DNA of 64,000 bases from Patescibacteria group bacterium (GTDB lineage Bacteria > Patescibacteriota > Patescibacteriia > 2-01-FULL-39-33), in contig JBAZBX010000002.1 of assembly GCA_041671305.1 (NCBI GenBank), positions 5,193 to 69,192 on the forward strand, given 5' to 3'. A model generated the notes under the pieces. The model was not told where the DNA came from. It saw nothing but the letters and a program-made list of their open reading frames with translations, and did no database searches. Below, one piece after another: positions 3,758 to 55,141 of this stretch. The first letter of the stretch is position 1. The number at the start of each line of letters is the position of its first letter. A program made the position numbers and the translations under genes.

Positions 3758-3907
3758 CTCTTGTCATTCCGACCGAGCTCTCAAGAGCGAGTGGAGGAAT
3801 CCCTTTCGTTAAAATTTAAAGCGATTTCTCCACTACGTCCTGATTACCGGACTTGCGCCACCGCTAAAGCTTTAGCGACACGCGGTCGGTCGGAATGACA
3901 ACGAGAG
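3758..3907. repeat. GC-rich palindromic mini-element, copy A, filling the radA/recG convergent intergenic region
   Basis: Terminal inverted repeats ctcttgtcattccgaccg (3758-3775) and cggtcggaatgacaacgagag (3887-3907). There is an internal perfect palindrome gctaaagctttagc and gtggagg/ctccac pairing. A homologous, internally deleted copy lies at 38108-38203. Confidence 0.5.
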
Positions 3908-3913
3908 ACATCT

Positions 3914-5962
3914 TTATTCCAAATGGTAAGTAAATTTATAATTTTCTAGTTTTCTAGTTAACGCAGGATAATTTTCCAATCCTTTTCCTACCAATTCTTC
4001 GGCGATATTTTTCGCTTTTTTTATTTGCTCTAAATTATTGATATCGGCAATTTGGAATTCAGCAAAACCTGATTGCTGATAGCCATAAACAGATCCTGAG
4101 CCCCGAAGCTCCAAATCCCTGTTGGCTAATTCAAATCCGTCACTGCATTCCTCCAGATATCTCAAACGCTGGAATGATTTCATGTCTTCACTGTCGCTAA
4201 ACAAAAAACAAAACGACTGAAAATCACCTCTTCCTACCCTGCCCCGAAATTGATGAAGCTGGGCCAACCCGAATCTTTCCGCCCCTTCAATCATCATAAT
4301 ACTGGCATTGGGAATATCCACTCCCACCTCAACCACGGAAGTGGAAACCAAGAGTTTCAAGTCGCCATCGGAAAACTTTTTCATCACTGCTTCCTTTTCT
4401 TCCGATTTGAGTCTCCCATGGAGCAAACCCACGCTGAGATGCGGAAAAACCAATTTATCCAACTTCTCAAATTCCTCAGTCACCGATCTCACTCCCAATT
4501 TATCCGAAGGATCAATCAAGGGACAAATTACAAAGACCTGCCTTCCTTTTTTAATCTGTTCATCAATAAATTTATAAGCGTCATTTCTTTTCTCCGGCGG
4601 AACTAGCTTGGTAATGATTTTCTTACGGCCTTTGGGCATCTGCTTAATCAAGGATAAATCAAGATCGCCATAGACAATCAAGGATAGCGACCTGGGAATA
4701 GGAGTAGCAGTGAGGGAGAGAAAATGCGGACTGGATTCTCCCCTTTTTATCAATTTATGCCTCTGTTCCACGCCAAATCTATGCTGTTCATCTACGATAG
4801 CTAGTCCTAATTTACTAAATTCTACCCCATCCTGAATCAAAGCGTGCGTACCCACGATCAAGTCAATTTCTCCAGCTTGGCATTTTTCTATGAATTTATT
4901 TTTGGAAATCTTTTCACCGTTGAACAATTTTTGTGTTCGGGTCAAAAGTCCTATTTTTATATCTGTTCCTAAAAATAAATTCTGCAGATTGCGATAGTGT
5001 TGAAAGGCCAGAATTTCCGTCGGAACCATAATCACGCTCTGCAAGCCGTTGAGATAAGATTGATATATGCCTAATGCCGCTACCACTGTTTTTCCAGAAC
5101 CCACATCTCCATTAAGTAACCGATTCATGGGGTAAAGACGCATCATATCTTTCATAATTTCCCAAGCCGATCTCTTCTGGTCTAGAGTCAATTCAAATTT
5201 AAGATTAGAAACAAATTCCTTGATTTTCGCCTCAAAAAAATCCATGGGATAAGATTTTTGAGAAGCATTCTCTTGCTTAATCACCTGTGACCAAAGCTGA
5301 ACCAAGAACAACTCATCAAATGACAATCTGGTTCTGGCCTTTTCCAGTTCTTTCATGTCGTTTGGAAAATGAATGATACGAAGAGCGCTAGATAAGCTTA
5401 TTAAATTTTCTCTAGTTTGTATTTCATGAGGCAAAAAATCCTCAATTTGTTCAACCAAATGAATAGCTAATTTAATTACTGACCTAATTTGTTTCTGTGA
5501 CAAGCCCTCGGTTGAAGAATATATCGGCACGATTCCCATAGGGATGAAATTGGAAGAATACTTTTCATACATCGGGGAGTTAAAATATACATTAAACATA
5601 TCTCCCGTTACTTTGCCGGAAATATAAAGCTTATCGCCCTGCCTGAGGCTTTTACCAATCCAAGGCTGATTAAACCAAATTATTTTTACACTGCCAGAGT
5701 CATCACTAACTATGGCCTCCGTCATAATTTTTCTCTTGCGAACGCTACGTCTATTGGAAATCAGATCAATACTGGCTACAATGGTGGCCGTCTCGCCTTC
5801 CTTTAAATCACTAATCTTGATAATTCTACTATAATCTTCATATCTAAACGGATAACAAAAAATGAGATCCAAAACGGTCTCAAGATTTATGTTTGCAAAC
5901 CTTTTTGCCAAAGCTTTTCCTATACCACTGATATCTGAAATTGGAGAGTTTAAAGAAAGCAT
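3914..5962 (-). CDS. recG: ATP-dependent DNA helicase RecG
   Basis: Wedge-domain N-terminus. Helicase motif I GDVGSGKTVVA. Motif II DEQHRFGV. 682 aa, typical RecG length. Confidence 0.9.
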   Translation of the reverse strand: MLSLNSPISDISGIGKALAKRFANINLETVLDLIFCYPFRYEDYSRIIKISDLKEGETATIVASIDLISNRRSVRKRKIMTEAIVSDDSGSVKIIWFNQPWIGKSLRQGDKLYISGKVTGDMFNVYFNSPMYEKYSSNFIPMGIVPIYSSTEGLSQKQIRSVIKLAIHLVEQIEDFLPHEIQTRENLISLSSALRIIHFPNDMKELEKARTRLSFDELFLVQLWSQVIKQENASQKSYPMDFFEAKIKEFVSNLKFELTLDQKRSAWEIMKDMMRLYPMNRLLNGDVGSGKTVVAALGIYQSYLNGLQSVIMVPTEILAFQHYRNLQNLFLGTDIKIGLLTRTQKLFNGEKISKNKFIEKCQAGEIDLIVGTHALIQDGVEFSKLGLAIVDEQHRFGVEQRHKLIKRGESSPHFLSLTATPIPRSLSLIVYGDLDLSLIKQMPKGRKKIITKLVPPEKRNDAYKFIDEQIKKGRQVFVICPLIDPSDKLGVRSVTEEFEKLDKLVFPHLSVGLLHGRLKSEEKEAVMKKFSDGDLKLLVSTSVVEVGVDIPNASIMMIEGAERFGLAQLHQFRGRVGRGDFQSFCFLFSDSEDMKSFQRLRYLEECSDGFELANRDLELRGSGSVYGYQQSGFAEFQIADINNLEQIKKAKNIAEELVGKGLENYPALTRKLENYKFTYHLE

Positions 5963-9389: not shown

Positions 9390-10031
9390 ATGAAATCCAT
9401 GCGATCTAAAATTTCATTTAAAAAATTATTTTTTATTGTTAATATTTTTGCAATTATATTTTCTGCAATAGTTATTGTTTCTCTCTCATGTGCTCTGCCG
9501 GTTTCTAATTCCCATGCCAATGGTTATGTTTCACAAAATTTGGTTAATGGCGCCTCAGCTGAGTCTACTCAGATTATGGGTCAGACAGTCCTAACTATAC
9601 GTCTCAAAATTCCCAAAATAAAAGTGGATACTGCTCTGGAATCTGTAGGTCTGACAGCTCAAGGAGCAGTAAACGTGCCTAAGGGACTTACCAACGCTGC
9701 TTGGTTCAATCTTGGGCCTCATCCCGGAGAAAATGGCAATGCGGTTATTACCGGTCATTATGGGATTTGGAAAAACGGTACGCCAACAGTATTCAATAAT
9801 TTATATAAATTACGTCCAGGTGATAAATTATATATTGAAAATGAAAAAGGGGAAATTATTACTTTTGTGGTAAGAGAAAGTAGAAATTATAACCCAAATA
9901 CGGACGCTTCAGACATATTCATTTCAAATGATGGCAAGTCGCATCTTAATCTCATCACCTGTGAAGGAGCTTGGAATAAAGTTTCTAAAAGTTATCCCAA
10001 ACGACTAGTGGTATTTACTGATAAAGAATAA
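9390..10031 (+). CDS. Sortase (transpeptidase)
   Basis: N-terminal TM anchor. Catalytic His region VITGHY. TLxTC-type catalytic Cys motif NLITCEG. Conserved Arg downstream. It is adjacent to an LPNTG-bearing substrate. Confidence 0.8.
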   Translation: MKSMRSKISFKKLFFIVNIFAIIFSAIVIVSLSCALPVSNSHANGYVSQNLVNGASAESTQIMGQTVLTIRLKIPKIKVDTALESVGLTAQGAVNVPKGLTNAAWFNLGPHPGENGNAVITGHYGIWKNGTPTVFNNLYKLRPGDKLYIENEKGEIITFVVRESRNYNPNTDASDIFISNDGKSHLNLITCEGAWNKVSKSYPKRLVVFTDKE

Positions 10032-10092: not shown

Positions 10093-10204
10093 CACTTTTG
10101 ACTAAAAACAAAAAAACTGGCCTAAGCCAGATTCTTTTATTTTTTCTCTCCTCTGCGAGCTCAATCGGACTTCGTTCGACGTAGCTCGCTTCGGCGAGCG
10201 CAGT

Positions 10205-10291
10205 CGGAGAGGGCGAGATTCGAACTCGCGATCCTTTTAAGGGGACTTCAGTTTTCAAGACTGACGCATTCAACCGCTCTGCCACCTCTCC
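10205..10291 (-). tRNA. tRNA-Ser (anticodon TGA)
   Basis: Reverse complement GGAGAGGTGGCAGAGCGGTTGAATGCGTCAGTCTTGAAAACTGAAGTCCCCTTAAAAGGATCGCGAGTTCGAATCTCGCCCTCTCCG. Anticodon stem TCAGT/ACTGA with loop CTTGAAA. Long variable arm. GTTCGAATC T-loop. Confidence 0.8.
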
Positions 10292-20111: not shown

Positions 20112-23100
20112 TTAATTAAGACTTCCAGTTTCCGTATTCCAAGTTTTGGCGCCTTCATAATTCCAATTATCCTTCACTTTGATAATGATATTACCGGTAC
20201 CAGCAATATCTCCGTAATAATGATACAAAACAAATGGATCTGAAGGATTCGGCCTGGAAAGAAGCGCTGTGCCTGAAAAAGTCGTAGTGGTATCATCTCC
20301 CCAAGAAACACTATAAGCCCGAATTGGCAATTGCTCCGGATCAATTTCCGCCGTAAATTCCAACTTGATCGGACTATTTGACTTGACCTTGCGCAGTTCT
20401 GCAGGATCAGTGGTTGTGGCTAACAAATTAGTAGTAGTGACATGCTTAATTTCCGGATAATTGAAACACATTCTAGCACTTGTAGAGAGTGTCGTGCTTG
20501 CTTCATGAGCCTCTCTTTTGCTAATTCCACCGCAATTTTCCGTTGGCACTGACCAATCCATAGAACTCACCAAACTATAATACCCGCCCTCAATCGGACT
20601 TCCGTCTTTGTTGGCTCTCCACTCCCAAACGCCATAACTCTTGGCAAAAAGTTTTTTCAGCTCGTCCACGTCATGGACTTGCCCCATCCTAGATTGGCCA
20701 ATATCAGTCTTGCTCATGTTTTCTTCATAGAATAACGGCTGGTTGTATGGCACGTCGTCCTTGCTATCCCACTCATTCGGATATTGACCGGTAATTGGAG
20801 CAATAATAGAAGCAAAAGGATTTTGGTCAGTATTATAATTATAACGATTATAATGGTAAATATTGGCGTAGATATAAGTCCCTCCGCTACAGAAATAATT
20901 AGAATTAAGGCTTCCATCGCTATTGCAGACGGAGCTGAAAGAATTATTTAATTTCTCATCTGAGACAGAATTACCGCAACATTTGAGACCCAGGGTATTA
21001 GAATTAGTTAAGCCAACATAATTTCCACAATAATTTCTAGGCGTAGAACCATTTAAACGCAAACAATACATAGAATGATCAAAACATTGATTAGGATTAC
21101 CTACAACATACTCCGATAATCCTCCACCACAACCCGCATCAGTACAACTTGACATATTGCTATTGGAAAAAAGCGACAAACCATCAGCTACTGTTTCAAA
21201 CATATCGCCATACAGAGCATTTACTACACAATCCGTGTCATTGGTTTTGTAACTGGAGCCGGGTGAGGTCCTAGCCGAATAAGCTTTTTGCTGTCCGGAA
21301 GAATCTACCACCTGAACCACCTTATCGCAATAGCCGGCAGTAAATCCGTTGGAACTAATTCCTCCTATAACTCCGCTGGCATACGCTTTGTCTGAAGCAG
21401 CCGTACCGCCGGAGCCAAAAGCATAACCCAGGATATCACCTTGGACATCCGGATGCGGATCACTGGCTTGTCCACTATAATTAGGATCGGTGTCCGTCAC
21501 TATCTTGAAAGCGACATAGCCAATAGCCACCGTCTCATCGTTAATCCATTCTATGAGTCCGGAAACGATACCGCTCATATCCTTCAAAGCGGAAAGTGTA
21601 TGCCAAGGAAGTCCAAAAGCTACAGGAAATTTAGCAATATTGAAGCCGAACATGCCCCATCCACCCCAATAATCGTCCTGAGTCATGGTAAATGGCGACA
21701 TAATAAACTTTCCGATATCTTCCAGGGCTGTTGTTATACTACCCCACAAAGATTTATCCTTTATGATTAAAAATCCACTACTATCGTAATCATTATGACT
21801 AGCTAAATAATTACATGTATTTGCCAATTCAAAATCATTACAACTATCATCTTGCTGACATTCACTTCCGCTGTCGCCAATTCCGCAAAAAGTCCTAGAC
21901 AAAGGCAAACATTCTTCATAATTATTTCCATTAAGATCAAAAATTTTAGGACATTCCTTACTACCCCTTTCACTATTTAGATGAATATCCACAACAGAAG
22001 TATTTTCTCTATAATTTGTCAGGGGATTACATGGTGTGGTTTCACCACTGCTTATGCCACCAGCACAAACTCCACAACTTGAACCACCATTATTAGTACA
22101 ACTTGCCGCCAAGTTTTCAGCGCTATACATGCTTTCTGCTTCGGGAGCGTTGGTGCCAAAATAAAATGGCAACTCTCCGGCAATACCAAAAGATTCATAT
22201 GGCTTCATAAATACAAATAGTGGCATCGGGAAGAAATTTTTCTTGTCAAATCCGACATAGAGTCCGCTATAGAAGAAACGATAGACATTAGGATATCTCA
22301 AAAGAGTTCTCATGGATGCAGGCACATCAGAAAAAGGATAAAATTTGACTTCCTGACCCGTATGAGACTCCACCAAATCCATGACAGAGGCATATTTTCC
22401 TAAGTTTGCCGCATTAGCATTTAGGGTAAAATTAGAAAAATTCATTTTTTTCTCCGCTTTGGATACGCAATAATACAAAGGCATTCTTTCTTGATAATAC
22501 GGTGAATAGTCATTGACTGATTCTCCGGCAATATTATCTACCGGCCACCATTGCAGACATTGCTGACTGTTGATAGCTGGATCTTTGAGGATGCAATATC
22601 CGTATTGGCCATAATATTGGGTGTTGTCTTTGTTGTACCTACAACCAGGAGCATCGGCTTCGGGATAGACACGACAAGTTCTGGCTATCTGACTAACTTC
22701 GGTGCCATCAGTATCCAAGATAGTGTTGACGCCAATATTATCCCACATTGTATATCCGCCTAACTTTGTATTATCAAATCCTTTCTCAAGAGACGGAGCC
22801 AAACTGAACAAGGCAATTTTCATGCTGGTAGCTCCGCTAGGCGGAGTTACCCTATAAACTACATGTTTCCATGGAGTACCTTGATTGATTTTCAAAGTGT
22901 CAGCTGATTCCCATTTAGGACCAAATAATTGTGGCCCAGAATTAATGGTAATAATGTTATATGAGCCATTGGAATTTCTCTCTAGTGCGTTGCCCTCTCC
23001 GTTCAAAAATAGATAACGAACTTCCGCGTATGGCAAATTAGTGCCGTCTCCGGAACCCGCGATGTTGGTAGTATTGACCCAGAAAGAAAGATAATATGGC

Positions 23101-26100
23101 GTGTCATCTTCAACTCCGATATTTTCTGATATGACTATATTGCCGGAATTAAGTTGCAGATAAGAACCTCCGCTTTCCGCTTTCTGAGGATCAGAAACCA
23201 CCTTGAACAAACTAGAATTCCAAGTAATACTATTCATTTTGGGCTTAACTGATTGACAAGCCTTGGCGGGAGTGGAAGAACAAGCCAAACTGCCGGGAAC
23301 CCAGCCGATAGGATCACTGGATTCTCCAAATGTCATCTCAAAATCACCATTGACTACTTCAGAAGTTCCGCCAAGTTGATTCATAGCATCATACGGATAG
23401 TTGATAGTACCGCTAACCTTACTGTCAACCTCAGAAACCAGAGGATTAGTCATGACGTAGCCGGTTTTATTTTTATCTATCTCTGGTGAATAAGTCGCGA
23501 CAGTACTGGAACTATTTACTTGCCTATTGCAAGAACCGTCATCAGCAAAAGATTGACACATGCTAATATCCAAGCATTTATCATTTTCTGTAAAATTAAA
23601 CTGGGAATCATTTTTGGATTTCTGATAAGTATTGCAAGTCAGCCAATTACTGCAAGTCCTGTCGGCACCGGCTGAAACTATCATATTGGCATTGTTGGTT
23701 TGAATTCCAGCAATCGGCGAAACCCCTCCTCCCGCGACTGACGAAGTGAGATCCGCGTTATAAGTGAGCTGGGAATCAAAAATTAAATTCTTCCAAAATC
23801 TATCTCCCGTAGAGGTGGCCGAATAATCAATCTGTCCCCTATCATTTACCAGAACGCAACCAGTTCGGAAATTAACCTGGCCGTTGCAGGATCCGGAATT
23901 GACTGAACTGCTTAGTTTATAATAAACTCCGGCCAAAGTGACCTGAGAAGTTGAGCTACTGACACCAACAGCACAATCCTTGTTTTCTGCCGAGGAAACA
24001 TAGAAAAGTCTAGAATCAATTTTTGAAGATTGTTGGAAAGGATCTATTATCAAAGTCGCTCCACTACAGGAAGACAATAAACTGATGGCCGAGTCTGAAT
24101 TATACAAAGTATTCGTCTTGATGGAGACGGTATTATCGGATTTTATTTTTAATTTGGTATAGACATTTGTCAACGGATCAACATATTCGTTGCATCCGCT
24201 CTGAGCGCCCTGGCAAATTCCCGCCCATCCCTGATAATCAGTTCTTTCTACTCCAGTGACATTATCAACTATGCCTATTGGTTGGATTTTGGAAGACTGA
24301 TTCTCATAACCAGTGCCAAAGGTTTGATTGGCGGTAGTAATACATGGAATACTAGTACCCTGCTGAACCCAAGAACCGGTTGAGCCTGCTCCTTTGACAT
24401 ATTCACATACTTTGCCATGAGGATCTTTAAAATAAGAAAATGAATTCTGACCCGCATATTCCTCACACCATAATTCATTAAATTTACAAATATCCGTTTT
24501 ATATCGCTCTGGAAGATTTTTCAGATAAGCCGTGCTATAACCAGTAACCTCGTCATATTTATTGATTATTGGCAGGCCGTAAGACGTGCATCCCATTTCC
24601 TTGCTGGAACAAGAATATTTAGAATCCGCCACCAGATAAACGGTATTGTAAGCGGGAACAGATATAGATGAAGTAGCCGGATCAGAATTAAAAATCTCAC
24701 CTCCCGGATAATCATAATTATGGGTATCCACTAATTTCTCACAACCCGCCGCTTCCGCGCGACAAAGCTTAGCAAATGATTTGAGATAAGCAACGTTGCC
24801 AAGCCTATCCTTGTATGCGGAACAGCCAAGCATATTGCCGGGAACACAGCGATGATTATCTACTCCTGCAGTCGTATCAGCGCAAGTCTGAGTAGCCGTA
24901 GGATTATTGTATAATGTCTGTCCATTGCCATCGCCTAAATTATTATCGCAAGAAAAAGGCGTGTACCATGAATTTTCTACCAAATAAACACTATTTTGCA
25001 CCTCTTTCAAAATAATATTATTGAGATAAATATTTACTCCCTGAGGAATATTGAATTCCAAATACTGTTCAGCTGAGGAATCCAAGTTCCAATGGACAAA
25101 AACCGGTCCCAAATCGTATTTTCTCCATTCAGAGCTTACCTGCGCGCGTGACAGGCTAAGATTAGAATTATCCACCTTGGCCATGGCAAAAAAGTCATTC
25201 ACCGAGCCAGCCGAACCGAACTTGATAGAATTAAAAGCAAATGAGACATTGCCTTTCGCCCAGAAAGACAAAACGTATGTTTTATTTTGAGAAATATTTA
25301 CCAAGTGTTTCAGGGTGGAAGTAGAAGCGGTATTTGGATTGGTCAAAGAATGACCGCCGACAAAAGTGGAAACATTACTTAGCGTGGCTGTGGCATTGGA
25401 ATTAACGCCTTGATCATAGAGCCAGAGAGCCGAAGAAGTTGTAAGATCAAAATTACTATTGAGAATATTACGCACATTGTTGCCGGTATTGCCGGTATAA
25501 GCGCGGCAACCTTTCATTTCGGCCGAGCACGTCTTCCCTTCTCCAGGAATCGCCATATAAATACATTCATTATTGCCATTCCAGAAACCATTATGAGAAA
25601 CACAATCCTTGGCAGAATCAATATTATTGGTTTGAGTCAAAGTTCTTCTGTACGGATGGCAATTATCGGAAATGGTAATTGTCTGAGAAAGCAGACGATA
25701 TGACTTAGCGCCGGTCGCATCATAAAATTCCCGACAATCCGGATTTACGGCCATATCTTCTTGTGCGCAATAACCGTCATCAAGAGATTCATCGGTATTG
25801 TCCACACAAAGAGGCTGACCCACACTGCCCGTAGAAGTAGAGTAAGCTAAATCCGTGCAAGGCTTGTTGGAAGCTAAAATATTTGATTTTTTTAATTTGT
25901 ATACTTTTAATTGATAGCCGGCCGTGTCATCGCCTTCCCAAGTGTAGTAAGTGCCATCATTAATCCCCGGTTTTTCACAAACCTGGAAATTAACATAATA
26001 TTCCCTATTTTCCGCTCCTTTGGATAAATCATCCAAATTTGTAAATTCATCGCATCCGGCCAAATCCGCAGAACAATATTTAGGCACACTGTCGGCGATG

Positions 26101-29100
26101 AATTGATTGTATTTAGAAGAGGTAAAATCCGTTTCTTCCTGCTTGTAGACTTGATAACCCACGCACTCACCGGGACAGACATCCAAAGTTTCTGCTACGC
26201 CAGGAACAGCCGGATCCCCGTTGGTAGGAGTATATAATTCACAATCCACTTCGTCTGCCGTACAAACTGGCGCGTATTTAGAGCAAAGTGTGTTTCTATT
26301 CTGCAATACGGAATTAATATTGGTATAATCCGCCCAAGCACCGGTGGTTGAACTCTTGTAGCAATTATAATAATCCGGGGCTTTTTTGAGATAAGCCAAC
26401 TGGCTTGACGGCCTATACGACGGATTGTATTCTGAATAATCGCTTGGAGTTTCAATATTATAAGTCACTTCCTCCAATTGAATATCATCAAAATAAATAT
26501 TGCCTCCCGCATAGTTACTGCCAAGTTTCAAATCAAAATTATAATCTGAACTCATGAAAGCATCCTGGCCTACAGTAAATGACTTGCTCAGCCTCTGCCA
26601 AGAATTAGTTATATTGGCATTGGCACTAGCAGAAACGATAGAATTTTCTCCCTGATATAATCCAATTGAGGAATTGGCAGTTGAAGGCAAATAAACCCAT
26701 CCAGAGAGAATGTATTTCTTTCCTTTTTCAAGAATGGCATTATGACTAGCCTGAGTTAATTTTTCAGCACAACTACCACTACTTGTGCATTGCAATCCCA
26801 AAGAATGCGTTCCGCTATGGATAAAGGTACTAGCCACGGCGCCAGTTCCGGCATCAGAGGCCCATCCCCCATCCAGAGAGAATTCAAATCCGCCGTTATA
26901 AAACAAGTTGCTTCCCAATCCTGCTTTCGTCCTGATAAATTGAGAACAACCATCATTACTGCCATCGCAAGTCTGGACGTTTCTATTAAAATAAATATCG
27001 GCTGAAGTATTTGACACCGCTGGCATATTCAAAGAAACTGAATTTTGCTTACAATCTTCAATTTGTTTTTTGAATTCAAAATTATCAAAATAAGCTTTGG
27101 CCGTAGTGCCTGCCTTGGTAATAATCTTAATAGTGGCCGTGGCATAATTGTCAGCATCAAAATACATATAATAATCATTCCATCCAGCACCAATGCTGGT
27201 AAGCGGAAGATTAATCGCTAATTGATTATCCCGATAAATTTGAACATCTACCTCTCCAGCGCTGAAATAATCAGCCCTGGCAGAAAATTTAAATTGATAA
27301 GTAGATGTGGCGTCCACTTGAATATCTTTCAAGGTTATAATTTCACTGTTGGGAGCTGCCGTTTGCGGAGCGTTGTTGGCGGTTACCACCAAAACAGCAG
27401 AATTATCCTTGCCCTTATTTGAATCCCAATAATCCCTGGTATATGCATCCATGGAAGATAATTCTTCTAACCAAAACTGGGGCAAGAAAGAATTGGTGGC
27501 CTTCTGATTGAAATTTTGATTTAAGCTGGACAAAACATCAGCCGTTTCCAAGCAATTTTCCAAATTACAGCTTGAAGCGCCATAGGGAATGGTGCAACTT
27601 CCCTCAAAAGAACAGGTTTTGGTGGAAGAATTATAAGTACAATGATTATCTCCGGTACAAGACGTAGGAGAACAGGCAGAAGCCATGGTTACGATATTTG
27701 CGGTGCTACTGAGGTCGCTAACCAGATGCGACTCAGAAATATTTAAATTTGGGGTAGCAGTACATCCGCTGGGATCATTACAAATTCCGGCAACTAAATC
27801 AGGAGCTAAACTTCTCCATATTTTGGAAATCGGATCAAATAAATTACTATACCACCTGCAACCGGCATTTTGTGAATTACAATCTCTATAATCCAAAGAG
27901 TTGGAGAGGTAAGACTGCGCCGAACCCTGACGACTCTTGAAAGTCTGACAGGTATTATTTCTGGAATCGCACGTTGTGCCGAAATTCCAAAATCTTCTTT
28001 CTTCTGTGCAATACCCATAGGAAGAGCAGGAGCCATCGGCATTTTCCTTGATGCATTGCTGTTCATCCGCGCAATACTGATCCCTATTCATGGTTCCCTC
28101 TTGAGAATTCTGAAAGGTATTATGATCGCCGTATCCCTGTCTTCTGCAATAAACTTCCGGCGCCTTAAATACCCAATAAGGATCAACTAGGCCGTAAAAT
28201 TTGCTTCCAGACTTATCAAATTGATCCATAATATCGCCCAAGGTTATATTTTCCTTGCTGTCCTTGAGATAATTGGCGGCTATTTCCCAGCCTATTGGCA
28301 CAATCCTGTATTTTCTCAAAATAAGAATGGTTCTATAGGTAATGGCGGTGGTATAATTTTGCGAGTTAGCATTATTGGGCACAAATAACCTGTTTTTGAA
28401 ATCATCGCCGACCTGCCATACTTGTTTTTTGTCTTTGATGTATGAAGAAAAAGCCTGGTCAATTACGCAGTCAGTCGGCCCTGGATTATTTTTGGCATCA
28501 TCCGGACAAGTCATCAGCTTGCTCAAAATGTCATAAGGACCGCCAATGGCATATTCGCTTTGTTTTAATTTATTGAATCTGGCCTCGGCTCCGGCCGCAC
28601 CCTCAGAATATGGCTGAGCGTCTGGGTTTAAAAGACTGGAAAGATCAGGCAAAGGCAATCCGGATAAAAAGCTATTGTTGTTATTGCCTGACGATCCGCT
28701 AGTAAACAATCCTGACTTGAAATTATTAAGCAATTGTCCAACCAAAGTTTGAGCAAAGGTATTAACAAAATCAACTATAGTTCCGGTAAAAACTTCTTCC
28801 GCCAAAGTGGACTTTTCGGTGACGGCCGGAAGCATATCCTTCACCACATCGCCAGGCGTCAAAACTTTATTGGCAAAATCAGTAACACTCTTCCAACCGG
28901 TCGGATCCACCACTTTTTCTCCCACTTTGATCTTATCGGCGACATAAGCGATTGATTCGCCACTGAGCTTCAAATAAACAGAAATGTCATTCTCCCCTTC
29001 ATTCAAAGAATTATTGTACTCAAAAGCAAAATTCGGATTGGTAATGGCGGTGTTCCAATTGGTCATCATCTTGGAAAAAGTACAACGCACCTGCCTAGGC

Positions 29101-29756
29101 TTTTTCCAATTTATACTGGTTTGTATAGACAAGCTAAGAGTCGGACTTTTACATAAATCCACTCCATATCTTTGTCCCACCTGATCAATAAAATCTCCCA
29201 AAGCGCTGTCCCCCAAATTCTGCAAATACGCTCCCCAACCCTCTGTGATAAATAATGGTTTTTGTCCCTTACCACCGGAAGCAATCCAAGTCGCCGTGTC
29301 AGCCGCTAACTGCTGAGACATCAGAGAGAGAGATGATTTAAAGGCGGAAGCGAGAGCCACTCTTCTGGTTTCTTTTTTCAAGTCATCAGAAACTTTTTTG
29401 GCATATTCTTTCCATTGGCTACGATTCGTCAAATCGGCATTATTCTTTTGGGCTTCATCTATACAAGCCATTTGTGCTTGCGTGGCCGCTAACTGAGCCT
29501 GTCCGCAATCCGTGGGAGAGGCGCAAGGCTTAGCCACAATGCTTTGGCATTTTGCCACAGCCGCCGAAGCCGCCTTATCCGCCTGATCCGGCAAACCGAC
29601 TTCTCCGCTGTTTCCAGCTGAAAACCAGTCAGCAGATTGGTCGGCGATATCTGCTTCCGCTCTTGCCATTATTGGAAACGCGGACAAAGTAAAAAACATC
29701 AACAACGCAAAAATAGCTACCGAAAAATAAATTTTATTGTGAAAATTAAACTTCAT
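20112..29756 (-). CDS. Giant (3214 aa) cysteine-rich exported protein with carbohydrate-binding-module-like (CBM4/9, ConA-like) domains
   Basis: One uninterrupted 9.6 kb ORF. N-terminal signal/anchor IYFSVAIFALLMFFTLSAFPIMA. More than 150 Cys, with a recurring module GCxx(Y/F) (GCRAYTGNTG, GCSAYKDRLG, GCTSYGLP, GCNEYVDPL, GCSQFIRT, GCDEFTNL, GCRWYSNLF...). NGGFE/NGDFE motifs (YNGGFEFSLDGGW, VNGDFEMTFGE) and the YFDNFEF/YFDDIQLEEV strand ends are typical of CBM_4_9 domains. Confidence 0.6.
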   Translation of the reverse strand: MKFNFHNKIYFSVAIFALLMFFTLSAFPIMARAEADIADQSADWFSAGNSGEVGLPDQADKAASAAVAKCQSIVAKPCASPTDCGQAQLAATQAQMACIDEAQKNNADLTNRSQWKEYAKKVSDDLKKETRRVALASAFKSSLSLMSQQLAADTATWIASGGKGQKPLFITEGWGAYLQNLGDSALGDFIDQVGQRYGVDLCKSPTLSLSIQTSINWKKPRQVRCTFSKMMTNWNTAITNPNFAFEYNNSLNEGENDISVYLKLSGESIAYVADKIKVGEKVVDPTGWKSVTDFANKVLTPGDVVKDMLPAVTEKSTLAEEVFTGTIVDFVNTFAQTLVGQLLNNFKSGLFTSGSSGNNNNSFLSGLPLPDLSSLLNPDAQPYSEGAAGAEARFNKLKQSEYAIGGPYDILSKLMTCPDDAKNNPGPTDCVIDQAFSSYIKDKKQVWQVGDDFKNRLFVPNNANSQNYTTAITYRTILILRKYRIVPIGWEIAANYLKDSKENITLGDIMDQFDKSGSKFYGLVDPYWVFKAPEVYCRRQGYGDHNTFQNSQEGTMNRDQYCADEQQCIKENADGSCSSYGYCTEERRFWNFGTTCDSRNNTCQTFKSRQGSAQSYLSNSLDYRDCNSQNAGCRWYSNLFDPISKIWRSLAPDLVAGICNDPSGCTATPNLNISESHLVSDLSSTANIVTMASACSPTSCTGDNHCTYNSSTKTCSFEGSCTIPYGASSCNLENCLETADVLSSLNQNFNQKATNSFLPQFWLEELSSMDAYTRDYWDSNKGKDNSAVLVVTANNAPQTAAPNSEIITLKDIQVDATSTYQFKFSARADYFSAGEVDVQIYRDNQLAINLPLTSIGAGWNDYYMYFDADNYATATIKIITKAGTTAKAYFDNFEFKKQIEDCKQNSVSLNMPAVSNTSADIYFNRNVQTCDGSNDGCSQFIRTKAGLGSNLFYNGGFEFSLDGGWASDAGTGAVASTFIHSGTHSLGLQCTSSGSCAEKLTQASHNAILEKGKKYILSGWVYLPSTANSSIGLYQGENSIVSASANANITNSWQRLSKSFTVGQDAFMSSDYNFDLKLGSNYAGGNIYFDDIQLEEVTYNIETPSDYSEYNPSYRPSSQLAYLKKAPDYYNCYKSSTTGAWADYTNINSVLQNRNTLCSKYAPVCTADEVDCELYTPTNGDPAVPGVAETLDVCPGECVGYQVYKQEETDFTSSKYNQFIADSVPKYCSADLAGCDEFTNLDDLSKGAENREYYVNFQVCEKPGINDGTYYTWEGDDTAGYQLKVYKLKKSNILASNKPCTDLAYSTSTGSVGQPLCVDNTDESLDDGYCAQEDMAVNPDCREFYDATGAKSYRLLSQTITISDNCHPYRRTLTQTNNIDSAKDCVSHNGFWNGNNECIYMAIPGEGKTCSAEMKGCRAYTGNTGNNVRNILNSNFDLTTSSALWLYDQGVNSNATATLSNVSTFVGGHSLTNPNTASTSTLKHLVNISQNKTYVLSFWAKGNVSFAFNSIKFGSAGSVNDFFAMAKVDNSNLSLSRAQVSSEWRKYDLGPVFVHWNLDSSAEQYLEFNIPQGVNIYLNNIILKEVQNSVYLVENSWYTPFSCDNNLGDGNGQTLYNNPTATQTCADTTAGVDNHRCVPGNMLGCSAYKDRLGNVAYLKSFAKLCRAEAAGCEKLVDTHNYDYPGGEIFNSDPATSSISVPAYNTVYLVADSKYSCSSKEMGCTSYGLPIINKYDEVTGYSTAYLKNLPERYKTDICKFNELWCEEYAGQNSFSYFKDPHGKVCEYVKGAGSTGSWVQQGTSIPCITTANQTFGTGYENQSSKIQPIGIVDNVTGVERTDYQGWAGICQGAQSGCNEYVDPLTNVYTKLKIKSDNTVSIKTNTLYNSDSAISLLSSCSGATLIIDPFQQSSKIDSRLFYVSSAENKDCAVGVSSSTSQVTLAGVYYKLSSSVNSGSCNGQVNFRTGCVLVNDRGQIDYSATSTGDRFWKNLIFDSQLTYNADLTSSVAGGGVSPIAGIQTNNANMIVSAGADRTCSNWLTCNTYQKSKNDSQFNFTENDKCLDISMCQSFADDGSCNRQVNSSSTVATYSPEIDKNKTGYVMTNPLVSEVDSKVSGTINYPYDAMNQLGGTSEVVNGDFEMTFGESSDPIGWVPGSLACSSTPAKACQSVKPKMNSITWNSSLFKVVSDPQKAESGGSYLQLNSGNIVISENIGVEDDTPYYLSFWVNTTNIAGSGDGTNLPYAEVRYLFLNGEGNALERNSNGSYNIITINSGPQLFGPKWESADTLKINQGTPWKHVVYRVTPPSGATSMKIALFSLAPSLEKGFDNTKLGGYTMWDNIGVNTILDTDGTEVSQIARTCRVYPEADAPGCRYNKDNTQYYGQYGYCILKDPAINSQQCLQWWPVDNIAGESVNDYSPYYQERMPLYYCVSKAEKKMNFSNFTLNANAANLGKYASVMDLVESHTGQEVKFYPFSDVPASMRTLLRYPNVYRFFYSGLYVGFDKKNFFPMPLFVFMKPYESFGIAGELPFYFGTNAPEAESMYSAENLAASCTNNGGSSCGVCAGGISSGETTPCNPLTNYRENTSVVDIHLNSERGSKECPKIFDLNGNNYEECLPLSRTFCGIGDSGSECQQDDSCNDFELANTCNYLASHNDYDSSGFLIIKDKSLWGSITTALEDIGKFIMSPFTMTQDDYWGGWGMFGFNIAKFPVAFGLPWHTLSALKDMSGIVSGLIEWINDETVAIGYVAFKIVTDTDPNYSGQASDPHPDVQGDILGYAFGSGGTAASDKAYASGVIGGISSNGFTAGYCDKVVQVVDSSGQQKAYSARTSPGSSYKTNDTDCVVNALYGDMFETVADGLSLFSNSNMSSCTDAGCGGGLSEYVVGNPNQCFDHSMYCLRLNGSTPRNYCGNYVGLTNSNTLGLKCCGNSVSDEKLNNSFSSVCNSDGSLNSNYFCSGGTYIYANIYHYNRYNYNTDQNPFASIIAPITGQYPNEWDSKDDVPYNQPLFYEENMSKTDIGQSRMGQVHDVDELKKLFAKSYGVWEWRANKDGSPIEGGYYSLVSSMDWSVPTENCGGISKREAHEASTTLSTSARMCFNYPEIKHVTTTNLLATTTDPAELRKVKSNSPIKLEFTAEIDPEQLPIRAYSVSWGDDTTTTFSGTALLSRPNPSDPFVLYHYYGDIAGTGNIIIKVKDNWNYEGAKTWNTETGSLN

Positions 29757-35398: not shown

Positions 35399-38300
35399 CT
35401 ATATCACAAAACTAATCAGCTTATTGGCGACAAAAATAGTTTTTTTGATTTCTGCGCCTTCAAGATATTTCTTCACATTATCATCTTCCTTGGCCAACTT
35501 TATGGCATCGGCTTCAGAGATGTCTACTGGCAATTTCAACTTGGCACGAACCTTGCCATTAATTTGGATAACTAACTCTATTTCCTCGTCTTTAATTTTA
35601 CTCTCATCATACTTCGGCCAAGCTTCTTTAAAAATACTTTCCTTGTGTCCTAACTTGTTCCACAGTTCCTCTGTCATATGCGGAGCAAACGGAGCAAGAA
35701 TTATTAAAAACTTTTCCACAAATTCTTTTGATACCACCTTTGATTCATTAATTAAAACCATCATGGCCGATATTGCCGTATTAAATCTCATATTTTCAAT
35801 ATCTTCGCCAACTTTTTTTATGGTTTTATGCAACAAAATTTCTAATTCTGGAGTTATTGTGCCGTCATTAGAAAAATTATTAACTAAATTCCAAACCTTT
35901 TCCAAAAATCGGCTTATTCCGATAATTCCTTTGGTATTCCAAGGTTTGGCGTCTTCCAAGGGACCCATAAACATTTCATACATTCTGAAAGCATCGGCAC
36001 CATTTTCCTTGACCTGATCATCAGGATTAATTACATTACCCTGAGACTTAGACATTTTCTCGCCGTTTTCAGCCAGAATCATGCCTTGATTGACCAACTT
36101 CGTAAACGGCTCTTCCTGCGGTACATAACCCAAATCATAGAGAACCATATTCCAAAATCTGCCATAGAGCAGATGAAGCACGGCATGCTCCGCACCGCCC
36201 ACATAGACATCAACCGGCATAAAGTATTTCAACTTTTCCAAGTCAGCAAAAACCTTGTCATTTTGAGGATCAATAAATCTCAGCCAATACCAAGATGAAC
36301 CCGCCCATTGAGGCATAGTGTTTGTCTCACGATGCGCTTCTCCTCCGCAAATCGGACATTTGGTCTTGACCCAATCTGTAATATTTACAAGTGGCGACTC
36401 ACCGGTGCCAGTCGGCTCATACTTGTCAACTTCTGGCAAAGTCAGCGGCAATTCATTTTCCGGTACGGGAATCCAGCCAGTGGTCTTGCAAGCCAAAACC
36501 TTTTTCAAAATTTCCGGCGCTTCAAAAACCGTGAAGTGCTTATGTCCATGCCATAATTCAAAATTCCAACCTTCCGGCAAATCCTTGTGCGTATCCGTAT
36601 GAATGTACGGATCATCATCAGAGAGAATAATATTTTTATTAATCGCTAATTGCGTCACTTTTTCCCAATCAATCGGTCTTCCTTCCCAGAATTCACGCAA
36701 AGATTTTACATCCGAACTGGGCGCGCCTTGTTCAAATAATTTCCATAGTTCATCGGACAGCTTGCCGATAGCCGAACCCACCAAAAATAAATGTCCAATT
36801 TTCTTTCCTGTTTTTTCAATTAGTCTCAGCGCCGCATTACTGCCCAGACTGTGGCCGATAATTATGTCATTTTCCCCCATTTTCTCCATATATGGTGTAA
36901 GCTCTTCCATCCACTTCTCAATTTTCGGACTGGCACTAGTAGTCATGGTCGGAGTAAACACTTCAAACCCGTTTTGTTCCAATTCTCTTTTCATCCAAGG
37001 AAACCAATTGCCATCTCCGGATCCTTCCCAGCCATGAATTATCAAAACTTTTTGTTTCTGTTTCTTGCAATTCTCGCAATAGACCAATGGAATCGGTTCA
37101 CCCCAATATCTTTGGCGAGAAAAAACCCAATCACGCAATTTATAATTCACCGCTTTATGACCGCATTTATTTTCTTCCAGCCAGGACGTCATTTTACCAA
37201 TCGCCTCACTTGGTCTCAAATCGTTGAGAAACTCCGAGTTGATCATTACTCCCGAATCAATATCTACAAAAGCTTTTTCACCATTTTGGAATATATCCCA
37301 GTACCACTTATGGTTTGGCAAATTTATAAAAGATTTCACTTCCGAAGAAGAAATCCAGTCGCCTTGATGATGTTCTGTATCTATTTTATCTGATCGCTTT
37401 TCATTTTTTAATTCCACCAAAAAACACAGAGAGTCTGCATATCTATTTACGCCCTTATGCTCTGCATAATGATTATTATGAATTTCGCCACCTATCTGTT
37501 TGATGGATTTTACATTTTGATATCCCGTTTCCTCCGTCATCTCCCTGACTGCTGCCTGCTCAGGAGTTTCATTAGCTTCTACCCCTCCCATTACGAATGA
37601 TTTCCAATCATGTTTCCCCCAATCAAGGCAATAGTATGAGTCATCAGCCCAGTGCTTGACCAAAACACACACCATTTTTCTCCTTATGGTTTCTTTGTCT
37701 AATTTAATTTTGTCTTTTTCCGTAACCGCAGTAAACAAAGGAGCCACCACTTGGATTATTGGCAAATCAAATTTATTAGCGAATTCCCAGTCTCTCTCAT
37801 CGTGGTATGGCACGGCCATGATTGCTCCAGTGCCATAAGAAGCCAGCACGTAATCAGAAATCCAAACCGGAATTTCTGTGCCGTTAACCGGATTAATGGC
37901 ACTAATTCCTTTCAATTCCACACCAGTCTTATCCTTGGCCAAATCAGTCCTTTCCAAATCAGTTTTATTTTTGGCTTGAGCAATATATTTTTCAACTTCC
38001 TTGATATTTTTAATTTTACCTTTCAACTCCTCAATCAGTTTATGCTCAGGAGAAATGACCATGTAAGTCGCTCCGAACAAAGTATCCGGGCGAGTTGTAT
38101 AAACACGAATTGTCATCCCGAGGAAGTCAGACCCAACTGACAACCGTGAGGATCCCGCGGGATTGCCACGCTTCGCCCTTGAAGGCTCGCTCGCAATGAC
38201 AGCAAAATCCACCTCCGCTCCTTCGCTCCGACCAATCCAATTCCTTTGTAAAGCTTTGATGGATTCCGTCCAATCCAAATTATCCAAACCACTAAGCAAC

Positions 38301-38908
38301 CTATCCGCATAAGCCGTGATGCGAAGCATCCATTGTCGCATATCCTTTTTAATCACTTCCGTACCGCAACGATCGCACTTGCCATCTTTGACCTCTTCAT
38401 TGGCTAATCCCGTTTTGCACGATGGACAAAAATTTATCGGCACTGTGGCTTCATAGGCCAAGCCTTTTTTGAATAATTGCAAAAAAATCCATTGCGTCCA
38501 TTTGTAATAATTAGGATCAGTAGTATTTATTTCCCTATTCCAATCATAGGAAAATCCCAAAGACATAATCTGTCTTTTGAAAGTTTTAATATTCTGTTCA
38601 GTTATAACTTTCGGTTGTGTTCCGGTTTTAATCGCATAATTTTCTGCCGGAAGTCCAAAGGCGTCCCAGCCCATGGGATGCAAAACATTAAATCCTTTCA
38701 AGCGAAAATACCTGGAATAAATATCCGTGGCCGTATATCCTTCGGGATGCCCGACATGAAGACCAGCCGCTGACGGATAAGGAAACATATCCAAAACATA
38801 CTTTTTGGGCTTACTGCCAAAGTCTTCAGCGCGGTTAATCTGACTCTTTTCCCATTGATCCTGCCATTTACCCTCACCATTATCTTTTAAAAAATCTTTA
38901 TATGTCAT
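35399..38908 (-). CDS. leuS: Leucyl-tRNA synthetase with two inserted enzymatic domains (NUDIX and alpha/beta hydrolase)
   Basis: HIGH region [14 protein letters not shown]. Editing-domain TTRPDT and [19 protein letters not shown] blocks. KMSKS ([10 protein letters not shown]). C-terminal anticodon-binding domain. At 1169 aa it is about 300 aa longer than typical bacterial LeuRS. Confidence 0.9.
36494..37060 (-). other. Alpha/beta serine-hydrolase domain (YdeN/RBBP9-like) inserted in LeuRS (approximately aa 617-805), between the CxxC halves of a zinc knuckle
   Basis: [19 protein letters not shown], nucleophile elbow [19 protein letters not shown] and a downstream His-containing block. The insertion is bracketed by YCENCKK upstream and KCPICGG downstream. 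Confidence 0.55.
37304..37696 (-). other. NUDIX hydrolase domain inserted in LeuRS (approximately aa 405-535), after the editing domain
   Basis: Perfect Nudix box [22 protein letters not shown] (Gx5Ex7REUxEExGU) within [12 protein letters not shown]...GDWISSSEV. It is flanked on both sides by canonical LeuRS sequence. Confidence 0.6.
38108..38203. repeat. GC-rich palindromic mini-element, copy B, inserted in-frame within the leuS coding sequence
   Basis: Termini ttgtcatcccgagg...ctcgcaatgaca. The reverse complement gtcattgcgagcgagccttcaagggcgaagcgtggcaatccc matches gtcattccgaccgagctctcaagagcgagtggaggaatccc of copy A. It encodes the LeuRS segment [27 protein letters not shown], which E. coli LeuRS lacks at this position. 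Confidence 0.5.
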
Positions 38909-39183
38909 ATTTATTAATCTTATTTATTTCTCGTCTCGCCCGCATCGCTACGCGAAGCGTTGCGGGCAGGCCACTTCTTTTCTCCTCCATTTTGGAGAAA
39001 TTCTTTATAGGTTGCCATATAGAATAGTTCTTTTTTAATGTTGTTAATTTACCATATATCCCTTATTTATTCAACTTAGCCGACAAAACTTATCATTTTT
39101 TAATTATATCAATCTCCCATTTCTCCGCTGTTTTAATTAGCTTATTTTATTTATAATTTCATAAACCAGAAAACGGCCAAAGG

Positions 39184-39211
39184 TTGACAAATAACCTAAA
39201 AAGGCTACAAT
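39184..39211 (+). promoter_or_regulatory. Consensus sigma-70-type promoter (TTGACA-16 nt-TACAAT) for the GC-rich ORF at 39255
   Basis: ttgaca at 39184-39189, tacaat at 39206-39211, GGAGA Shine-Dalgarno 7 nt before the ATG at 39255. Confidence 0.4.
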
Positions 39212-39254
39212 ATCTCTCAGTACAAACCGTGGCTCAACCAGAAGGAGAAACACC

Positions 39255-39764
39255 ATGAGACTCTTGAATCGCATGCCCATAATGTTGGCGGTAATTGTGA
39301 TAGCTGGCATAGTGCTGATCGTCGTGCCACCACCTTTACTGATTTTTGCTTTGGTGTGGGTGGCGATTTCCGGCTTGGCAATCCTGTTCAAGGAAATCAA
39401 GTTGGCCATCGCTGAATTACTGCTTGATCAAGAGAAGCGTCTACTCTTGATGGCTCTCTACGAATTGGCCTATTACAGCCGACCAAGTAAAGGCGGGGAA
39501 GGCGAACACGACGAACACTACAAGTACTATCCCGATGATCTGTATTGGAAAAAAGCCTCTTCTCACTCCGATTGCTACTCAGCAATCAACGAATCAATGA
39601 TGGGTACTCCCAACGACATCTACCAGGGAGTCATAACCGCCTTAACGGTAGAAGGCCTGCATCCCTATGATGCAAACAAGTTAGTCAAGCGGCTTATTGA
39701 TAAATGCTTGGCTGAAAAAGTCCCACGGTGGCGCATCAATCTGGTGGCTAAACCTGTTGAATAA
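39255..39764 (+). CDS. Hypothetical membrane protein (two N-terminal TM helices) within a GC-rich island
   Basis: 169 aa. MPIMLAVIVIAGIVLIVVPPPLLIFALVWVAISGLAILF. Local GC content about 48% versus about 36% in the flanks. Own consensus promoter and terminator. Confidence 0.4.
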   Translation: MRLLNRMPIMLAVIVIAGIVLIVVPPPLLIFALVWVAISGLAILFKEIKLAIAELLLDQEKRLLLMALYELAYYSRPSKGGEGEHDEHYKYYPDDLYWKKASSHSDCYSAINESMMGTPNDIYQGVITALTVEGLHPYDANKLVKRLIDKCLAEKVPRWRINLVAKPVE

Positions 39765-39806
39765 AAACGCCACCACGATGTGTTGATCCAGCGAACCCAA
39801 AACAAT

Positions 39807-39835
39807 AAGCGCGACCCTGGAGGAATCGCGCTTTT
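39807..39835. terminator. Bidirectional rho-independent terminator between convergent genes (39255-39764 and uvrA)
   Basis: aagcgcgaccctggaggaatcgcgctttt has a 7-bp GC stem flanked by A/T runs on both strands. Confidence 0.5.
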
Positions 39836-39847
39836 CAATTTGCATTT

Positions 39848-54412: not shown

Positions 54413-55141
54413 TCATTTTTTCCTAGCGATAGCCATCAAATTATATCCATTCCAAAAACTGGTTTTTGTTCCCTTGTTCTCATAATATATTTCTTGAATT
54501 TCAAAACCGGCTTTTTGCAAAAGATTTTTCATCTCGCCCTTAGCAAACGAATGGACGTATCTTCGGCTTTCAGCCCCTATCGGCTTCCAGGGTATGAAAA
54601 CATCCTTAAACGACCAAACGCCCTGAGATAATTTATATTTATAATCTACAATCATGGGACGATATTTTTTGATGCCAAAAATATTCCAATTAGACATGAC
54701 CAAAGTTCCTCCGGGTTTGAGTAATTTATAAATATCCGCCAAAATCTTCAATCGCAATTCTTTAGTCGGAATATGATGCAAAACCGCCAGCATAAAAACG
54801 AGATTAAAGGACTGGCTCGCCGTAACATCCAATTTTATTATATCCCCTACTTCAAATTTAATATTTTTTTTATTCGCAAATTTTTCTCTGGCAATTTTTA
54901 TTAATTCTTCTGAACTATCCACTCCTAAATAGCTTACATTTTTATCCAAGAATAATTCAGCCAGACGGCCATTGCCACAACCCAAATCCAAAACCCTATC
55001 TCCATCTTGGACAAAGCCCCTAAGCTCATCCAGAATATGCCACCATTTGGCTCTGGTCACAGAAAAATCTCCGGCGATAGTATTGTAAATATCGTGCGTT
55101 TCCCGTAATATTTTATTGACTTTATCTTGTTTTATGGGCAT
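54413..55141 (-). CDS. Class I SAM-dependent methyltransferase
   Basis: Motif I VLDLGCGNGRLAE. Motif post-I DSSEE. About 242 aa. Confidence 0.6.
   Translation of the reverse strand: MPIKQDKVNKILRETHDIYNTIAGDFSVTRAKWWHILDELRGFVQDGDRVLDLGCGNGRLAELFLDKNVSYLGVDSSEELIKIAREKFANKKNIKFEVGDIIKLDVTASQSFNLVFMLAVLHHIPTKELRLKILADIYKLLKPGGTLVMSNWNIFGIKKYRPMIVDYKYKLSQGVWSFKDVFIPWKPIGAESRRYVHSFAKGEMKNLLQKAGFEIQEIYYENKGTKTSFWNGYNLMAIARKK

Follow-up and report, generated by a model that had tools for sequence, protein, structure and literature searches.

A probable CGTC/NTS-type hairpin dimer carried in frame by the leucyl-tRNA synthetase gene of a Patescibacteria group bacterium

The stretch of DNA analysed here (hereafter the window; 64,000 nucleotides, positions 5,193 to 69,192 of contig JBAZBX010000002.1, assembly GCA_041671305.1) comes from a Patescibacteria group bacterium. 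It carries on its minus strand a leuS gene (35399..38908), whose open reading frame (ORF) of 1169 aa matches the Pfam catalytic, editing and anticodon-binding domains of leucyl-tRNA synthetase (LeuRS). Within this gene lies copy B (38111..38201, minus strand), in which two TGTC-tagged hairpin units form an inverted dimer of 91 bp and which corresponds to LeuRS residues 237-266 (VIASEPS...FLGMT). A second inverted dimer, copy A (139 bp; 3762..3900, plus strand), lies in the spacer between the convergent genes radA and recG, whose identities are backed by Pfam. It is very probable that copy B is a non-autonomous, ORF-less inverted dimer belonging to an extended-arm variant of the CGTC/TGTC-tagged repetitive extragenic palindromes (REPs), that is, of the NTS/SRM superfamily (SRM, Ssn-related motif).

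Read on the coding strand from 38201 down to 38111, copy B is TGTCATTGCGAGCGAGCCTTCAAGGGCGAAGCGTGGCAATCCC-GC-GGGATCCTCACGGTTGTCAGTTGGGTCTGACTTCCTCGGGATGACA (91 nt). A first-pass annotation of this DNA had described it as lying inside leuS without breaking the frame, and indeed it encodes 30 residues with the leuS frame open and no stop codon. Its G+C content of 0.59, compared with 0.40 in the rest of leuS, is within the top 0.5% of 91-nt windows, in agreement with the earlier remark that it is richer in GC than the host DNA. The left arm (38159..38201, minus strand; TGTCATTGC-GAGCGA-[GCCTTCAAGGGC]-GAAGCGTG-GCAATCCC) comprises a head, an outer stem, G/A-rich internal loops, an inner hairpin and a tail. 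The right arm (38111..38156), which has its head on the plus strand, reads TGTCATCCC-GAGGAA-[GTCAGACCCAACTGAC]-AACCGTGA-GGATCCC. No target-site duplication was seen at the leuS junctions of the element.

At the protein level, 25 residues of the window LeuRS have no counterpart between residues 239 and 242 of Thermus thermophilus LeuRS (alignment with 1H3N/2V0C). The site is the tip or turn of a beta-hairpin before the TTRPDT motif, which we take to be the threonine-rich editing-site motif of LeuRS, and leads into the CP1 editing domain. In an AlphaFold2 model covering residues 1-430, strands at 231-239 and 261-271 are joined by a low-confidence coil (240-260). The 30 residues of the dimer occupy the place of a beta-hairpin turn of about eight residues, and, as the frame is kept and no stop codon intervenes, they are predicted to be translated as an enlarged surface loop of LeuRS. 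An exact-protein look-up found no record of the window LeuRS.

The stop codons of radA (3751-3753) and recG (3914-3916) are separated by 160 nt, of which copy A takes up 150, with inverted-repeat complementarity reaching out to 3758-3907. Both its terminal inverted repeats (18-21 bp) and the palindrome CGCTAAAGCTTTAGCG inside it are present, as the first-pass annotation had stated. Its left arm (3762..3803, plus strand) reads TGTCATTCC-GACCGA-[GCTCTCAAGAGC]-GAGTGGA-GGAATCCC, and the first 41 nt of this arm, through GGAATCC, are identical to the left arm of a relative on a metagenome contig (L258). The right arm (3822..3900, minus strand) is enlarged by a nested extra hairpin at about 3853-3886, which contains CGCTAAAGCTTTAGCG and is missing from that relative. 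Folding, which had been proposed as a check on both copies, set copy A clearly apart from shuffled sequences (-71.6 kcal/mol, z = -9.3); for copy B it did not, as discussed below. A terminator scan found no canonical terminator inside copy A.

Both copies are inverted pairs of imperfect hairpins of about 45 nt, and all four arms in the window begin with TGTCAT. Their local alignment, which spans the left arms, scored 34, whereas shuffled sequences scored 14.1 +/- 2.2 and none of 2000 reached this value. The differences between them include compensatory ones in the stem (ATTCC..GGAAT versus ATTGC..GCAAT). Copies A and B are homologous beyond chance, as had been claimed. Rfam searches over the window reported no family at the gathering thresholds and only chance-level hits to both copies at E <= 10. 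Among the other GC-rich islands of the window, the only palindromic one was that at 10140-10249, where the fold is due to an overlapping tRNA-Ser gene.

Further copies, whose existence the first-pass annotation had left to be checked, were found in abundance outside the window. Scanning metagenomes with a gapped pattern modelled on two window arms returned at least 120 stretches. One of them (L268) contains, inside a dihydrouridine synthase (Dus) gene, an element that is 85% identical to copy B over its full length, and another (L258) contains in an unrelated spacer an element 89% identical to copy A over 94 nt; neither contig has any other sequence in common with the window. A search for exact matches to the canonical arm TGTCATTGCGAGCGAAGCGWRGCAATC located it on 67 viral contigs, as solo arms, inverted pairs and direct tandem arrays, with homology setting in sharply at TGTCAT. 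Contig G+C contents among the metagenome matches listed range from 0.33 to 0.69. The family is not specific to this lineage, in which the first-pass annotation had placed it. In four IMG/VR sequences (L090, L094, L117 and L126) the arms form direct tandem arrays with a period of 37-45 nt, and several of these arrays lie inside ORFs of about 200 codons on contigs of 54-55% G+C.

Comparison of these arms shows a composite hairpin, with a single-stranded TGTCAT head, a covarying outer stem of 5 bp (ATTSC/GSAAT) and an ATCC tail; sequence-conserved G/A-rich internal loops and a hypervariable inner hairpin lie between the outer stem and the tail. In the outer stem, the two S positions were complementary in 106 of the 108 distinct arms among the matches listed, although the search pattern permitted all four combinations. 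In twenty arms of 39 nt, 91% of cells were paired compared with 82% in shuffles (0/500 reached 91%), and sliding the partners reduced pairing to 21-46% of cells. Pair 8-34 of the same arms was CG in 11 cases and GC in nine.

Comparison with LeuRS homologues shows that copy B is an insertion in leuS, since a syntenic leuS and most homologues have a shorter, baseline loop. Among the 120 best clusters of LeuRS homologues, 53, or about half, have 21 residues from RNWIG to TTRPDT; the window LeuRS has 44. The closest genome of the GTDB set, a Patescibacteria metagenome-assembled genome (L006; LeuRS 72% identical), shares the uvrA-leuS synteny and has the 21-residue baseline loop. Overall, the baseline loop was found in 75 of 85 loci, which comprise five LeuRS-homologue contigs and 80 genome loci. 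A genome-collection scan with LeuRS returned mostly Firmicutes and one close relative. Orthologues lacking the leuS segment, with which a comparison had been proposed as a check, therefore exist.

When the DNA of five LeuRS homologues was compared, four (L001, L002, L003 and L005) held elements in this loop that start with TGTCATTGCGAG. Three of these elements are dimers ending in ..GATGACA or AATGACA, and that of L005 is a solo arm of 27 nt. Internal indels shift the frame among them, so that the ends read GMT in some and RND or RDD in others; what is homologous is the DNA and not the peptide. The closest LeuRS (L001, 77% identical) carries an insertion at the same place that starts with VIAS and ends with LGMT, with different inner hairpins, and the two elements are 68% identical. 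The L001 copy is probably orthologous to copy B, which implies that the leuS insertion is older than the split between the window lineage and L001, and it is absent from L006 and L004.

The same LeuRS loop has received other sequences as well. In L004 it contains an unrelated, GTAG-tagged perfect palindrome (TGTAGAGACGTTGCA|TGCAACGTCTCTACG; L004:1071-1100). By peptide signature, TGTCAT-type inserts are present in 10 of the 120 LeuRS clusters and other repeat-like inserts in at least eight more, and in P0036 a whole serine-hydrolase domain occupies the loop that holds the repeat in the window. Given this variety of inserts, the loop is a place where insertions have repeatedly landed or survived. 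Among the loop repeats of P0014, P0018, P0021, P0042, P0064 and P0114 are low-complexity peptides, for example KSQI..NSKFKIQNSK and PPYQGE..PPWKGGE.

In-frame copies are not limited to leuS. Among the listed matches on contigs with a G+C content below 0.5, 10 of the 54 evaluable arms sit at least 50 codons inside ORFs of at least 150 codons. The hosts backed by Pfam include DNA polymerase I (PolA), Dus (three contigs), UvrB, the C-terminal region of DnaX, an RluA-type pseudouridine synthase, an S-adenosylmethionine-dependent methyltransferase and an Eco57I-like methylase. A 1.03-Mb genome of the Candidate Phyla Radiation (CPR; L274), in which 13 arm heads lie within 22 kb, has elements in truB, in the LeuRS loop and in one further ORF. 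The frame is kept in copy B and in all intragenic copies examined (nine other host genes), among them those of PolA, Dus, UvrB, DnaX, the RluA-like protein and the methyltransferases; a check of this kind on copies within coding sequences had been proposed earlier. One DNA polymerase I gene (L222:98-4327, minus strand) contains both a LAGLIDADG intein and a hairpin dimer.

Dus provides a second recurrent site. Following VK[IL]R[ST]SI, its loop holds a B-like element in one orientation in L268 (1750-1840) and an A-like element in the opposite orientation in L169 (6110-6245) and L229 (4735-4785). A filled and an empty site could also be compared directly. The window has a methyltransferase gene at 54413-55141, and its orthologue in L176 carries a 94-bp element where the window has about 20 unrelated nt (54808..54830, minus strand); there is no target-site duplication. 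The further copies, the empty orthologues and the frame-keeping copies together support the first-pass view that this is a selfish-type repeat family.

The same annotation had regarded the Rickettsia palindromic elements (RPEs) as the only palindromic repeats known to colonise coding sequences in frame, and the present family as analogous to them. Both statements need correction. In the CGTC-tagged REP superfamily, whose tag is often TGTC and for which no dedicated transposase was found, the members include dRS3 of Neisseria and RPE-6 and RPE-4 of Rickettsia conorii (Di Nocera et al., 2013; PMC3733652). The relationship is thus a homology of kind and not a mere analogy, RPE-4 and RPE-6 being themselves CGTC-tagged REPs (PMC3733652). 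Intragenic CGTC units and dimers that encode 20-30 residues were reported in uvrA/B, recB, dnaE, tRNA synthetase and truB genes in 2013 (PMC3733652), which makes the Rickettsia-only premise outdated.

The likeness of the window family to the CGTC REPs extends to the tag, the opening A-T pairs, the short tail, the prevalence of inverted dimers, the in-frame intragenic dimers of 20-30 aa and a preference for spaces between convergent genes, such as that of copy A between radA and recG. CGTC families 1-4 have a CGTC, TGTC or CCTC tag, a stem of 8-9 bp opening with A-T pairs, a loop of 4-5 nt and a 3-nt tail, their intergenic copies lie between genes that converge or run in the same direction, and the phyla described as carrying CGTC repeats are Proteobacteria, Chlorobi, Bacteroidetes, Spirochaetes and Thermotogae (PMC3733652). 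With the RPEs, which are described as about 100-150 bp long and in frame in unrelated housekeeping genes at apparently tolerated sites (Ogata et al., 2000, summarised in PMC10969869), the window family shares the in-frame palindromic repeat in unrelated protein genes; it differs in host lineage, and RPE-1 is an unrelated palindrome of greater length. None of the six peptides encoded by the elements had an NCBIfam match at E <= 10 (a library that we assume to include RPE domain models), and a protein search with the element-encoded peptides produced no candidates. Literature searches with the sequence strings and peptide words retrieved just primers and cell-line papers, and those combining CPR with MITE (miniature inverted-repeat transposable element) or palindrome found nothing specific.

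Some of the arms lie close to a nuclease gene. At six of the at least 120 metagenome loci listed, an ORF of 85-110 aa with the GIY-YIG signature was found no more than 205 nt from an arm. At three of these (L154, L158 and L247) the gene stands between inverted arms that come within a few bases of its start and its stop, and the arm-bracketed genes encode 95-110 aa. Four arm-adjacent GIY-YIG proteins matched PF01541. In tblastn searches, two Neisseria gonorrhoeae chromosomes each had a single match to the L158 protein (53% identity, E = 3e-22), and this gonococcal homologue sits amid 16 NTS copies, CGTCATTCCCGCG.A.GCGGGAATC, in 3.2 kb. From this NTS-rich locus we infer that the homologue is probably SsnA. 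SsnA, a GIY-YIG nuclease with a single domain (cd10448), binds the NTS hairpin solely as single-stranded DNA, and Ssn homologues across bacteria are flanked by SRMs (PMC11893778). Ssn binds via the GTCAT head and cuts a few nucleotides upstream (Chenal et al., 2025; PMC11893778).

The arm-GIY-YIG-arm layout is the same as the NTS-ssnA-NTS layout, and the repeats themselves resemble NTS/SRM in the GTCAT head, the ATTCC..GGAAT stem, the ATC(Y) tail and the occurrence as single units, inverted pairs and clusters. In contrast to NTS/SRM, the stem of the window arms is broken by two G/A-rich internal loops and bears an extra hairpin of variable length. Neither Patescibacteria nor intragenic copies are mentioned in the NTS/SRM paper (PMC11893778). 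The two architectures meet in L274. The published SRM string, HGTCWYN(0-2)YYVSBRHN(0-5)WNVSBRGN(0-2)RNCYNB, matches Neisseria NTS and three arms of this genome, which adjoin ten extended arms; at L274:7334-7361 and 9896-9980, arms identical to the core of the Neisseria NTS consensus (TGTCATTCCCGCGAAGGCGGGAATCCAG) stand beside extended arms.

Based on these observations, we propose an explanation that combines the identity of the element with a route for its spread, and as a whole we consider it likely. Dimers without a gene of their own would spread in trans while DNA is single-stranded, during replication or transformation, by Ssn nicking followed by host repair or recombination. Such spread would leave no target-site duplication and would often replace a few host bases. 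Inside essential genes, the copies that survive would be those in tolerant loops with the frame kept, which would account for the repeated hits in the same loops. In favour of the part of this explanation in which spread depends on Ssn are the arm-gene-arm units, the enzymology already published and the absence of target duplications; we put this part forward tentatively, as a proposal that may well prove wrong.

Several observations weigh against this explanation. Arms of 39-49 nt that form composite hairpins with a 5-bp stem are, unlike CGTC REPs, outside the definition of that family, and the published SRM string has no match in the window, none of the four arms fitting it. No copies besides A and B were found in the 64-kb window. 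Copy B as a whole folded no better than shuffled sequences (z = -1.5), nor did single arms, and therefore the proposed structure has covariation as its sole basis. A GIY-YIG profile found nothing below E = 0.5 among all window ORFs, and an adjacent GIY-YIG gene is present at just 6 of the 120 listed metagenome loci and at none of the 67 viral loci. The leuS insertion is old, so mobility may by now have been lost. For Neisseria NTS/SsnA, what has been reported is modulation of transformation, and nuclease activity was shown but transposition was not (PMC11893778). The mobility of NTS/CGTC repeats has never been demonstrated.

Other explanations were weighed against the same evidence. An ancient, lineage-specific LeuRS loop kept for protein function, with only an incidental likeness to the radA-recG spacer, would agree with the intact frame and with the insertion at the same place in L001, which also starts with VIAS and ends with LGMT. 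However, the syntenic L006 and most homologues do without the segment, the peptide is not conserved between the window and L001 (frame-shifting indels) while the DNA termini are, DNA 85% identical to it occurs inside a Dus gene with related copies in intergenic positions, and the model has low confidence for the stretch; such a loop is highly improbable. Hardly credible is the idea that the hairpin is never translated, either because ribosomes bypass it or because it is cut out of the mRNA. GC-rich palindromes are bypassed in yeast mitochondria, which speaks for this idea, but the element and the other intragenic copies examined are open and keep the frame, as selection for read-through predicts, and no pair of take-off and landing codons is evident. 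The REPIN-like inverted doublet recalls instead a classical REP/REPIN mobilised by RAYT, an IS200/IS605-type tyrosine transposase. Like REP, BIME and REPIN sequences, the present repeats are short imperfect palindromes with an unpaired tag, their inverted doublets can fold into one long hairpin, and recognition is presumed to act on single-stranded DNA; moreover, REPs are known inside genes (PMC3733652), and a GTAG palindrome sits in the same LeuRS loop of L004. REP/REPIN sequences, on the other hand, have a GTAG tag and a Y1 (HUH) transposase, whereas here the tag is TGTCAT and the arms flank GIY-YIG nuclease genes. Among the ten window ORFs to which Pfam was applied, none had a Y1_Tnp domain, and no transposase has been linked to CGTC repeats (PMC3733652), which leaves mobilisation by RAYT very improbable.

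Nearly as improbable is a MITE derived from an insertion sequence with a DDE transposase, TG..CA ends and a cut-and-paste mode. The terminal inverted repeats of 18-21 bp, the TGT...ACA termini, the small size and the many dispersed copies are what such an element would show, but the filled and empty pair has no target-site duplication and host bases were replaced. In addition, arms are found on their own and as direct tandem arrays, every arm forms a covarying hairpin in its own right, and the sole gene seen between arms is that of a GIY-YIG nuclease. The main alternative to Ssn-dependent spread is that no transposition takes place at all, and that copies were distributed by homologous recombination, gene conversion or natural transformation with Ssn merely as a restriction-like modulator. 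This would fit the Neisseria system, in which NTS/SsnA modulate transformation rather than transposition. It would also fit the closer similarity of copy B to the Dus copy (85%) than to the apparently orthologous LeuRS copy of L001 (68%), the replacement of loops rather than their simple interruption, and the presence of a ComEC gene beside leuS in L274. Yet recombination cannot by itself make the first copy at a new LeuRS or Dus site, and the insertions in the Dus loop are independent and in both orientations, which calls for a de novo insertion step; we therefore regard this alternative as unlikely on its own.

A stronger form of Ssn-dependent spread is that Ssn-type GIY-YIG nucleases actively insert extended-arm TGTC dimers into single-stranded DNA, with a preference for particular sequence or structural contexts. 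It would explain why the loops of LeuRS, Dus and TruB were hit independently, in both orientations and by different sub-families, and also the replacement of host bases and the absent target-site duplication. We consider this form speculative and rather doubtful.

The surroundings of leuS show some additional features. A GC-rich palindrome in the leuS leader (38925..38975, minus strand) had been suggested as a degenerate relative of the two copies. It is a real hairpin (z = -4.8), but both the TGTCAT head and the AATCC tail are missing, and it is at most a possible member of the family. Upstream of the leuS start (38908-39020, minus strand) there is a pseudo-start, MATYKEFLQNGGEKKW, that matches the N-terminus of homologue P0001 at 15/16 positions and is followed by the palindrome, a stop codon and the real leuS start; the first 16 codons of leuS are thus imperfectly duplicated around a hairpin insertion. 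The spacer between uvrA and leuS (38909-39847) is 940 nt long, compared with about 100-160 nt in the relatives L001 and L004, and includes an ORF of 169 aa (39255-39764, plus strand) without a Pfam match. The body of the window LeuRS also holds an inserted NUDIX domain (aa 432-528), which is recurrent in many CPR LeuRS homologues, and a serine-hydrolase domain (PF06821; aa 621-786). In L004 and L274 leuS consists of two ORFs, split near the loop that holds the repeat in the window.

Elsewhere in the window, a direct repeat of 300 nt with 93% identity (324-623 and 1590-1889) links the adjacent ORFs 120-1334 and 1344-2411, which are probably tandem paralogues with signal-peptide-like N-termini. 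A single ORF of 3214 aa (20112-29756, minus strand) is followed by one of 1134 aa.

The kind of element described here and its in-frame habit are already known. What is new is the Patescibacteria host, an arm architecture outside both published definitions, and the repeated use of single LeuRS and Dus loops. The CGTC/NTS superfamily, which adds 20-30 residues to essential enzymes, is now extended to the CPR, with a large structural variant that published search motifs overlook. One locus thereby joins the Rickettsia RPE (2000), the REP catalogue (2013), which had no mobilising enzyme, and the Ssn nuclease (2025), and the role of Ssn in the spread of repeats is directly testable with the arm/nuclease pairs of CPR. 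Such insertions lengthen CPR proteins, give rise to spurious small ORFs and can distort the alignment and phylogeny of marker genes, leuS among them. If active insertion by Ssn were true, it would provide the first mechanism for Rickettsia-type 'protein-coding palindromes', and such palindromes would count as a general force that reshapes essential enzymes where genomes are reduced, as in the CPR.

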